A stretch of 64,000 bases of DNA, taken from the NCBI RefSeq assembly GCF_003334305.1, contig NZ_QOWS01000005.1; one strand, 5' to 3'. The position numbers and the translations under genes were made by a program. Each line of letters begins with the position of its first letter. Position 1 is the stretch's first letter. A model generated the notes under the pieces. That model was given only the letters and a program-made list of their open reading frames with translations. It had not been told where the DNA came from and searched no databases. The DNA comes from Escherichia coli (lineage in GTDB: Bacteria > Pseudomonadota > Gammaproteobacteria > Enterobacterales > Enterobacteriaceae). This document shows positions 51,530-52,481 of the stretch, piece by piece.

Positions 51530-51846
51530 GATATGGGGTTTGGTCGTTGTTAATGAGCACGACAATCATGACCGCCAACGACTGGATTCTTCCTTGGTTT
51601 ATACTGGTGCGCATAATGTATATTATGTTAAATCATGTCTGAGTGATGCGAAGTGCTTTTCTGGTAGTCGTTATTCGTTCAGGGTTCAAGAAATTAAGCC
51701 TCTCCTCTTTCATAATTGGCCTGTGCATGGAGAAATAGCCTGGTTATTCCCTGCCCCATGCTAAGAGCGCAGTGTCTGTCGCATAGACACTGCATACGAA
51801 AACACCAGAGGGTGCTGTTACTTATTTAAGGACGGATCAAGCGGGA

Positions 51847-52029
51847 ATGAGTCCACTCCGGTATCAGAAATGGCTACGTCTCAATGAAGTCAGGCGACCG
51901 ATGCTGAATGAACATTACGATGTCACCACAGCAGCCTATGCTGTCGGTTACGAAAGCTATCCCATTTCAGTCGGGAATATTCGCGGATGTTTGGAGAGTC
52001 ACCCAAGAGAGATATTACCAGGTTAAGAA
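51847..52029 (+). pseudogene. yneL: Remnant of an AraC-family regulator (K-12 yneL-like), frameshifted
   Basis: 59-codon ORF encodes an AraC C-terminal HTH fragment (YQKWLRLNEVRRPMLNEHYDVTTAAYAVGYESYP); the expected continuation (...FADVWRVTQERYYQVKK) is in another frame (ORF 51908..52129). Confidence 0.45.
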
Positions 52030-52481
52030 AGTCTGTCGGTCAGCTTTAATAAACCCTGCACTTATCTGTTTAGAGCAATTCGGTGTTAGTTTCAGCAAGC
52101 AAACATTAACCATAGCTAATGATTTATAGCCATATTAACCATTGGTAGCCCTTGACCTTTCCTGACACTTCCCTTGTTCGCAATAATATTCTGTTTAGTC
52201 ACGGTTTATAAATAACATGCATAATGAAATCGTCATGTTATTTAGCGACATAAAATGTTTTTGCAAATACTCTCTTCAACAAGTGCAGCAATAAACTTGT
52301 TGTGATTAGGTGTCCTTGTGATTTAAAGATATTATCGTTCTTCGTGAAATGTAATAACCCTGGAAACTATATTCTCAGGGCAACAACCAATCAAGAATGA
52401 TTCTTGTTTTTAAGCAATAACAGAATGACTTAATTGTTAACCCTCTTTATTCAGCTACTTAAATATAAATTTTGGAGAATT

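Follow-up and report, generated by a model that had tools for sequence, protein, structure and literature searches.

The region between hipA and the fimbrial operon in the window, the whole 64,000-nucleotide stretch of Escherichia coli DNA analysed here, carries at positions 51841-52049 what is very probably the E. coli pseudogene yneL (b1506), a dead fragment of an AraC_N regulator once paired with a hydrolase; its place next to the f9 fimbrial operon is a matter of position alone. The finding itself is nothing new: the K-12 annotation and the RefSeq annotations of thousands of genomes already include the remnant and its frameshift, and yneL is described as a pseudogene for which no function is reported (PMC9308461; bioRxiv 10.1101/2025.09.02.673814). 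Feature coordinates are collected in Table 1.

An AraC-family remnant at the yneL locus

An earlier note, made from the sequence alone, had proposed that a frameshifted AraC-family regulator lies here, with its second HTH encoded from 51847. Both parts of this proposal hold. ORF 51847..52026 is present and encodes MSPLRYQKWLRLNEVRRPMLNEHYDVTTAAYAVGYESYP..., and the frame-repaired peptide matches the Pfam families HTH_18 with E = 4.4e-16 (model positions 20-76 of 80) and HTH_AraC with E = 1.8e-5. When the intact 309-aa regulator P0123 of Klebsiella pneumoniae is used as a tblastn query, residues 241-279 align to 51841-51957 at 95% identity and residues 280-309 align to 51957-52046 at 87% identity in another frame, with a joint E of about 2e-29. 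Nucleotide identity to the Klebsiella gene is 85.6% over 222 bp. Against these values, we give no credence to a chance resemblance to AraC proteins without true homology. The frame changes at a 1-bp loss at 51958/51959, where O157:H7 reads AGC TTA TCC and both the window and K-12 read AGC T-A TCC.

The first part of the remnant, in the frame of the ATG at 51847, takes in the linker helix and the beginning of the second HTH; its extent is set by tblastn with P0123, P0126, P0132 and P0138, by the HTH_18 match and by the start of the RefSeq pseudogene, which is equivalent to 51841. The second part codes from 51960 to 52046 and ends in a stop codon at 52047-52049 (translation and tblastn; the end of the RefSeq pseudogene corresponds to 52049). 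This true continuation has no start codon and was therefore never listed as an ORF. ORF 51908..52129, which the earlier note had taken for the continuation, runs in a third frame (phase of 51530) and is unrelated.

Of the two HTH motifs, the first (about residues 205-240 of P0123) is missing and the second is split by the 1-bp deletion, so that no two-HTH domain of about 100 aa is encoded in a single frame. Residues 1-240 of four intact orthologues, with the AraC_N domain (PF06719), found no match in 51300-52500 by tblastn at E ≤ 10 with a word size of 2. In the window, 78% of the coding sequence and the partner gene are gone, and the feature is a remnant of an AraC/XylS family member, not a functional member. 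An Rfam search of 51300-52600 gave nothing at E ≤ 1, a terminator scan found none, and nothing promoter-like was detected between dif and the ATG of the remnant.

Location and state of the fragment agree with those of yneL. E. coli strain 120899 shows 100% identity across region 51530-52480, and 5406 of the 5426 complete E. coli genomes contain a match to this region. The RefSeq annotation of strain 120899, mapped over, places an HTH pseudogene ("frameshifted; incomplete; missing N-terminus") at 51841-52049, in accord with the decay that had been read from the sequence. K-12 (strain MGY aligned) is 99.1% identical across the first 775 bases of the query and has the same frameshift. In both genomes the fragment lies between hipA/dif and the yde fimbrial genes (ydeT in K-12), with the same truncation, an identical 5' breakpoint and the same missing T; the two copies are one codon apart, RRQML in K-12 and RRPML in the window. 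An extra deletion in K-12 took the f9 major subunit, the chaperone and the 5' end of the usher and left ydeT directly next to yneL, whereas the f9 operon of the window is complete. Farther to the left, the autotransporter gene is an intact 1806-aa ORF here; the annotations of K-12 strain MGY and O157:H7 E32511 give it a frameshift.

Table 1. Positions of features in the window and of corresponding segments in other contigs
Feature	Window position	Strand	Position in other contig	Basis and remarks
ECSE_1600-family autotransporter	44312-49732			RefSeq annotation of strain 120899
hipB	49941-50207			RefSeq annotation of strain 120899
hipA	50207..51529	+		RefSeq annotation; left neighbour of dif
74-aa ORF	51540..51764	+		spurious, overlaps dif
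dif, 28-bp XerC/XerD chromosome dimer resolution site	51606..51633	+		exact match, GGTGCGCATAATGTATATTATGTTAAAT
dif and right flank; segment kept by window/K-12 type	51607..51714	+	K. pneumoniae L010 5186-5288	blastn, 72% identity
Hydrolase leftover, 3' flank and last codons; segment kept by window/K-12 type	51754..51828	-	L010 5394-5475	blastn, 79% identity; alignment
Right-hand segment kept by window/K-12 type	51841-52061		L010 7721-7942	
AraC remnant, part 1	51841..51957	+		codons 241-279 of ancestral 309-aa regulator, AG-MSPLRYQKWLRLNEVRRPMLNEHYDVTTAAYAVGYES
Frameshift site	51958..51959	+		one T of ancestral TT gone; O157:H7 alignment, tblastn frame change
AraC remnant, part 2	51960..52049	+		codons 281-309 and stop, SHFSREYSRMFGESPKRDITRLRKSVGQL then stop; phase of 51531
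f9 promoter	52196..52225	+		-35 TAGTCA, 18-bp spacer, -10 CATAAT; promoter scan
F9 (yde/fml) major subunit gene	52482..53045	+		RefSeq annotation of strain 120899
F9-type operon chaperone	53406-54116			RefSeq annotation of strain 120899
F9-type operon usher	54158-56809			RefSeq annotation of strain 120899
Left segment kept by O157:H7/E300010 type	not in window		L010 5180-5288	
Middle segment kept by O157:H7/E300010 type	not in window		L010 5831-5890	60 bp from hydrolase gene interior
Right segment kept by O157:H7/E300010 type	not in window		L010 7664-7942	
argW-intS module			L016 9076-12520	E. coli BS90R-A and 85 other genomes; 92% identity to K. pneumoniae

The dif site and the 74-aa reading frame

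The 74-aa ORF to the left of the remnant, which the earlier note had offered as a possible further AraC piece, does not belong to the regulator: it has no tblastn match, is interrupted by an in-frame stop in O157:H7 and contains dif. Against Pfam it gave no match below E = 0.001, the best being Maelstrom with E = 0.023. The 28-bp dif sequence, for which zero occurrences were expected, was found once, as the sole site in the 64 kb at up to three mismatches, and has the layout of a XerC arm, a 6-bp centre and a XerD arm. It is identical to the dif site confirmed experimentally in E. coli (PMC3025954), and the K-12 dif lies within the yneL-hipA intergenic region (bioRxiv 10.1101/2025.09.02.673814). 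The exact match suggests that the window spans the replication terminus. Between 44 and 52 kb the GC skew lies at +0.10 to +0.15; beyond 52 kb it drops to -0.004 to +0.046, with no clear negative turn in the remaining 12 kb.

The remnant is 207 bp from dif. The homology of dif and its right flank to K. pneumoniae is the left edge of an ancestral dif–hydrolase–AraC synteny, and the leftover of the hydrolase gene lies between this edge and the remnant. A perfect 8-bp stem (51770-51777 / 51785-51792; CAGTGTCT GTCGCAT AGACACTG) without a T-run sits in what is left of the 3' flank of the hydrolase gene, and Klebsiella has a similar stem.

Intact orthologues and their gene neighbourhood

As a protein query, the 89-aa O157 peptide recovered short fragments only. 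A three-frame reading upstream in a Klebsiella assembly yielded a full-length, frameshifted gene, and with this reconstruction as a second query we obtained intact proteins of 304-309 aa containing PF06719 (AraC_N) and PF12833 (HTH_18) from K. pneumoniae, Kosakonia radicincitans and Enterobacter. In all three, the regulator gene (+) is divergent from a roughly 360-aa alpha/beta-hydrolase gene (-), and the arrangement in Citrobacter youngae is identical. Dehydrogenase, reductase and flavodoxin-like genes lie beyond the pair, and DeoR-type and two-component genes are also among the neighbours. No fimbrial gene adjoins an intact orthologue in these four genera or in the argW-island copy of E. coli. 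The Klebsiella, Enterobacter, Kosakonia and Citrobacter regulators (e.g. P0123) are orthologous to the remnant, with 87-95% amino acid identity over the 69 retained residues; they are intact and keep their hydrolase partner, whereas the window copy is truncated and has lost it.

The dif core lies 1.2-5 kb from the hydrolase–AraC pair in Klebsiella, Enterobacter and Citrobacter, and this proximity in several genera indicates that the pair is an old neighbour of dif. Judged solely from the conserved pairing, the ancestral regulator would have controlled the divergent hydrolase. NCBIfam searches with an intact orthologue, the hydrolase and the remnant returned only generic DNA-binding-domain matches far below the curated cut-offs; for the hydrolase, the best match was a UilS-type lactonase with 62 bits against a cut-off of 400. 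A sequence search of the PDB matched AraC-family DNA-binding domains alone and found nothing for the N-terminal domain. E. coli YqhC, the aldehyde-responsive activator of yqhD-dkgA, is what we take to be a characterised member of the same domain family.

A contig scan with a degenerate DNA pattern for MSPLRYQKWLRLNE returned at least eight loci and was incomplete, as it missed the E. coli representative even though the window fits the pattern. An 82-aa product of Enterobacter hormaechei (P0014), considered as a further deletion allele, is really a full-length gene with a frameshift.

A second copy of the module occurs in E. coli itself. In 86 genomes, a prophage-like argW-intS island contains an intact hydrolase gene, a truncated Fe-ADH gene and an intact AraC gene (304 aa). 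These genomes also retain the yneL remnant, and the island regulator adjoins the hydrolase gene, not fimbrial genes.

Independent deletions beside dif

Breakpoints were placed against the K. pneumoniae contig L010, where dif (5188-5212) is followed by the hydrolase gene on the minus strand (5469-6548) and the AraC gene (7001-7930). Two deletion types are found in E. coli, one shared by the window and K-12 and the other by O157:H7 and E300010, with right endpoints at codons 241 and 222. Each type keeps DNA that is absent from the other (Table 1), which implies that the locus, once more complete in an E. coli ancestor, was lost at least twice independently. Of 5426 E. coli genomes, 3066 contain the segment that only the window type keeps (51754..51828). 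Because no intact hydrolase–AraC copy was found at the dif locus in E. coli, its ancestral state there is reconstructed from the fragments.

The ancestor would have been a regulator of roughly 305 aa, with an AraC_N sensing domain and an AraC-type two-HTH DNA-binding domain, encoded divergently from the roughly 360-aa alpha/beta-hydrolase, and the pair would have stood a few hundred bases to a few kilobases to the right of dif. In the window/K-12 lineage, a single deletion of about 2.25 kb took out the hydrolase gene, the promoter region that the two genes shared and codons 1-240 of the regulator, and a subsequent 1-bp deletion shifted the frame at about codon 280. The leftover has no sensing domain, no first HTH and no promoter of its own, and it cannot act as an AraC-type activator.

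A further, independent deletion is seen in K. pneumoniae ATCC 13883 (L024 1070-1770), where the sequence from just right of dif to codon 228 is gone and codons 228-309 remain about 430 bp from dif. Truncated products suggest that other K. pneumoniae alleles end near codons 250 (P0056) and 263 (P0088). Truncation from the dif side has occurred in at least two E. coli events and at least one confirmed K. pneumoniae event. With the two suggested K. pneumoniae alleles counted, the last 45-90 codons are always kept, an apparent clustering of endpoints that is partly due to ascertainment because a C-terminal peptide query recovers only alleles that retain this part.

Closeness to dif may have promoted these deletions. 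No Xer-type site lies at the deletion endpoints inside the gene, so that we can only infer a causal link between dif and the deletions. A dif-like site was also considered as the cause of the endpoints and was rejected: the best candidate matches 18 of 28 bases at L009 7220, which is within the range of 15-19 for shuffled sequences and away from the breakpoints at 7664-7721. It is unlikely, in our estimate, that the repeated truncations reflect a process other than random decay, either deletion tied to dif (e.g. imprecise loss of Xer-integrated elements) or selection for the 3' end; if selected, the 3' end could be a small protein or a DNA element.

Filamentous phages integrate at dif via Xer recombination; the remnant is likewise close to dif, and phage genes are present there in some strains. 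In E. coli E300010 (L025 12800-33200), about 21 kb separates hipA from the yneL remnant, in the order of a filamentous-phage replication initiator, Zot and a secretin, then a dif with one mismatch (AGTGCGC..., L025 23642-23669), then a 9.5-kb redox block in which reductase, monooxygenase and CMD genes are joined by a LysR gene and a copy of IS100. Inspection by eye shows a degenerate stretch resembling dif, TGTATAT ... AGTTAAAT, just ahead of the shared right flank, around L004 3760-3790. On the K. pneumoniae contig L011 (1-3154), filamentous-phage genes for DUF2523, Zot and a secretin abut dif on the left, in what looks like a dif-integrated element. A contig binned as "Candidatus Nanosynbacter" (L020 3652-3931) contains dif and the MSPLRY motif at the exact 214-bp spacing of the window E. 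coli type and is probably an Escherichia contig that was mis-binned into that MAG.

Relation to the f9 operon and possible residual function

Some fimbrial operons possess AraC-family activators, and those of the Rns/CfaD/AggR type are dedicated to such operons. The earlier note had read the remnant as a decayed dedicated regulator of the downstream F9 fimbrial operon. We find this extremely improbable. In its favor is position only, since 147 bp separate the end of the remnant from the -35 element of f9 downstream, and 432 bp separate it from the major subunit gene; a place upstream of a chaperone-usher operon and the superfamily of the DNA-binding domain are also what it shares with the Rns/CfaD/AggR activators, whereas NCBIfam reveals no specific similarity to them and the intact orthologues of the remnant carry AraC_N. 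The pairing of these orthologues with the alpha/beta-hydrolase and redox genes in four genera and in 86 E. coli genomes, never beside fimbrial genes, contradicts a dedicated fimbrial role, as do the scraps of the hydrolase gene that still adjoin the E. coli remnant. In addition, homology to Klebsiella stops 12 bp past the AraC stop codon, which marks the f9 region as a separate, E. coli-specific block. The f9 operon has been described as unique to E. coli, with its own mapped promoter and repression by H-NS, and the same study states that no evidence ties upstream putative regulators to it (PMC3966885). The CFT073 promoter mapped by 5'-RACE has a -35 of TAGTCG, a -10 of CATAAT and an 18-bp spacer, and transcription from it begins 251 nt ahead of the start codon (PMC3966885); the promoter detected in the window matches it. 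Some E. coli genomes have ORFs (P0096, P0100) in which the PF12833 part of the yneL remnant is fused with a domain of fimbrial subunits (PF00419), and the same fusion has been described in BL21 (PMC9308461). It is most likely the product of an intergenic deletion, not a real two-domain regulator.

A fragment freed of its original role might still function as a small single-HTH protein or as a selected cis-acting DNA element. The last 70-90 codons survive in each of the independent deletions, those of E. coli (codons 222 and 241) as well as that of ATCC 13883 (codon 228), the remnant of the O157:H7 type is an uninterrupted 89-codon frame, and a condition-dependent yneL signal, an array signal only, is reported in microarray compilations (PMC9308461). 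We nevertheless consider residual function very unlikely. In the window/K-12 type the second HTH is broken by the frameshift, and 3066 of the 5426 genomes carry the defining segment of this type. The other suggested K. pneumoniae alleles would end at about codons 250 and 263, and a 525-bp deletion that includes yneL was without effect in the one assay reported (bioRxiv 10.1101/2025.09.02.673814). Positions that are invariant in the intact orthologues differ among the E. coli remnants: a Leu codon found in all intact orthologues compared is Pro in the window, Gln in K-12 and Thr in O157. Intact orthologues show pN/pS ratios of 0.04-0.13 and E. coli remnants ratios of 0.22-0.59, the latter from 1-6 substitutions per pair and alone not significant. 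Together, the ratio and the variation at the Leu codon would fit relaxed constraint, with small counts. The dead-fragment reading remains the one that we favor for yneL.

Implications

The gains are modest. One is the origin of the remnant, an AraC_N regulator paired with a hydrolase and long adjacent to dif in several genera of the Enterobacteriaceae; this origin removes a tempting but wrong tie to F9 fimbriae. The most useful correction concerns the upstream "ORF", which is really the dif site, essential for the resolution of chromosome dimers, and for which a coding annotation is inappropriate. The same gene pair has been lost repeatedly and independently beside dif, which makes this locus a small, concrete case of the instability of the terminus region.
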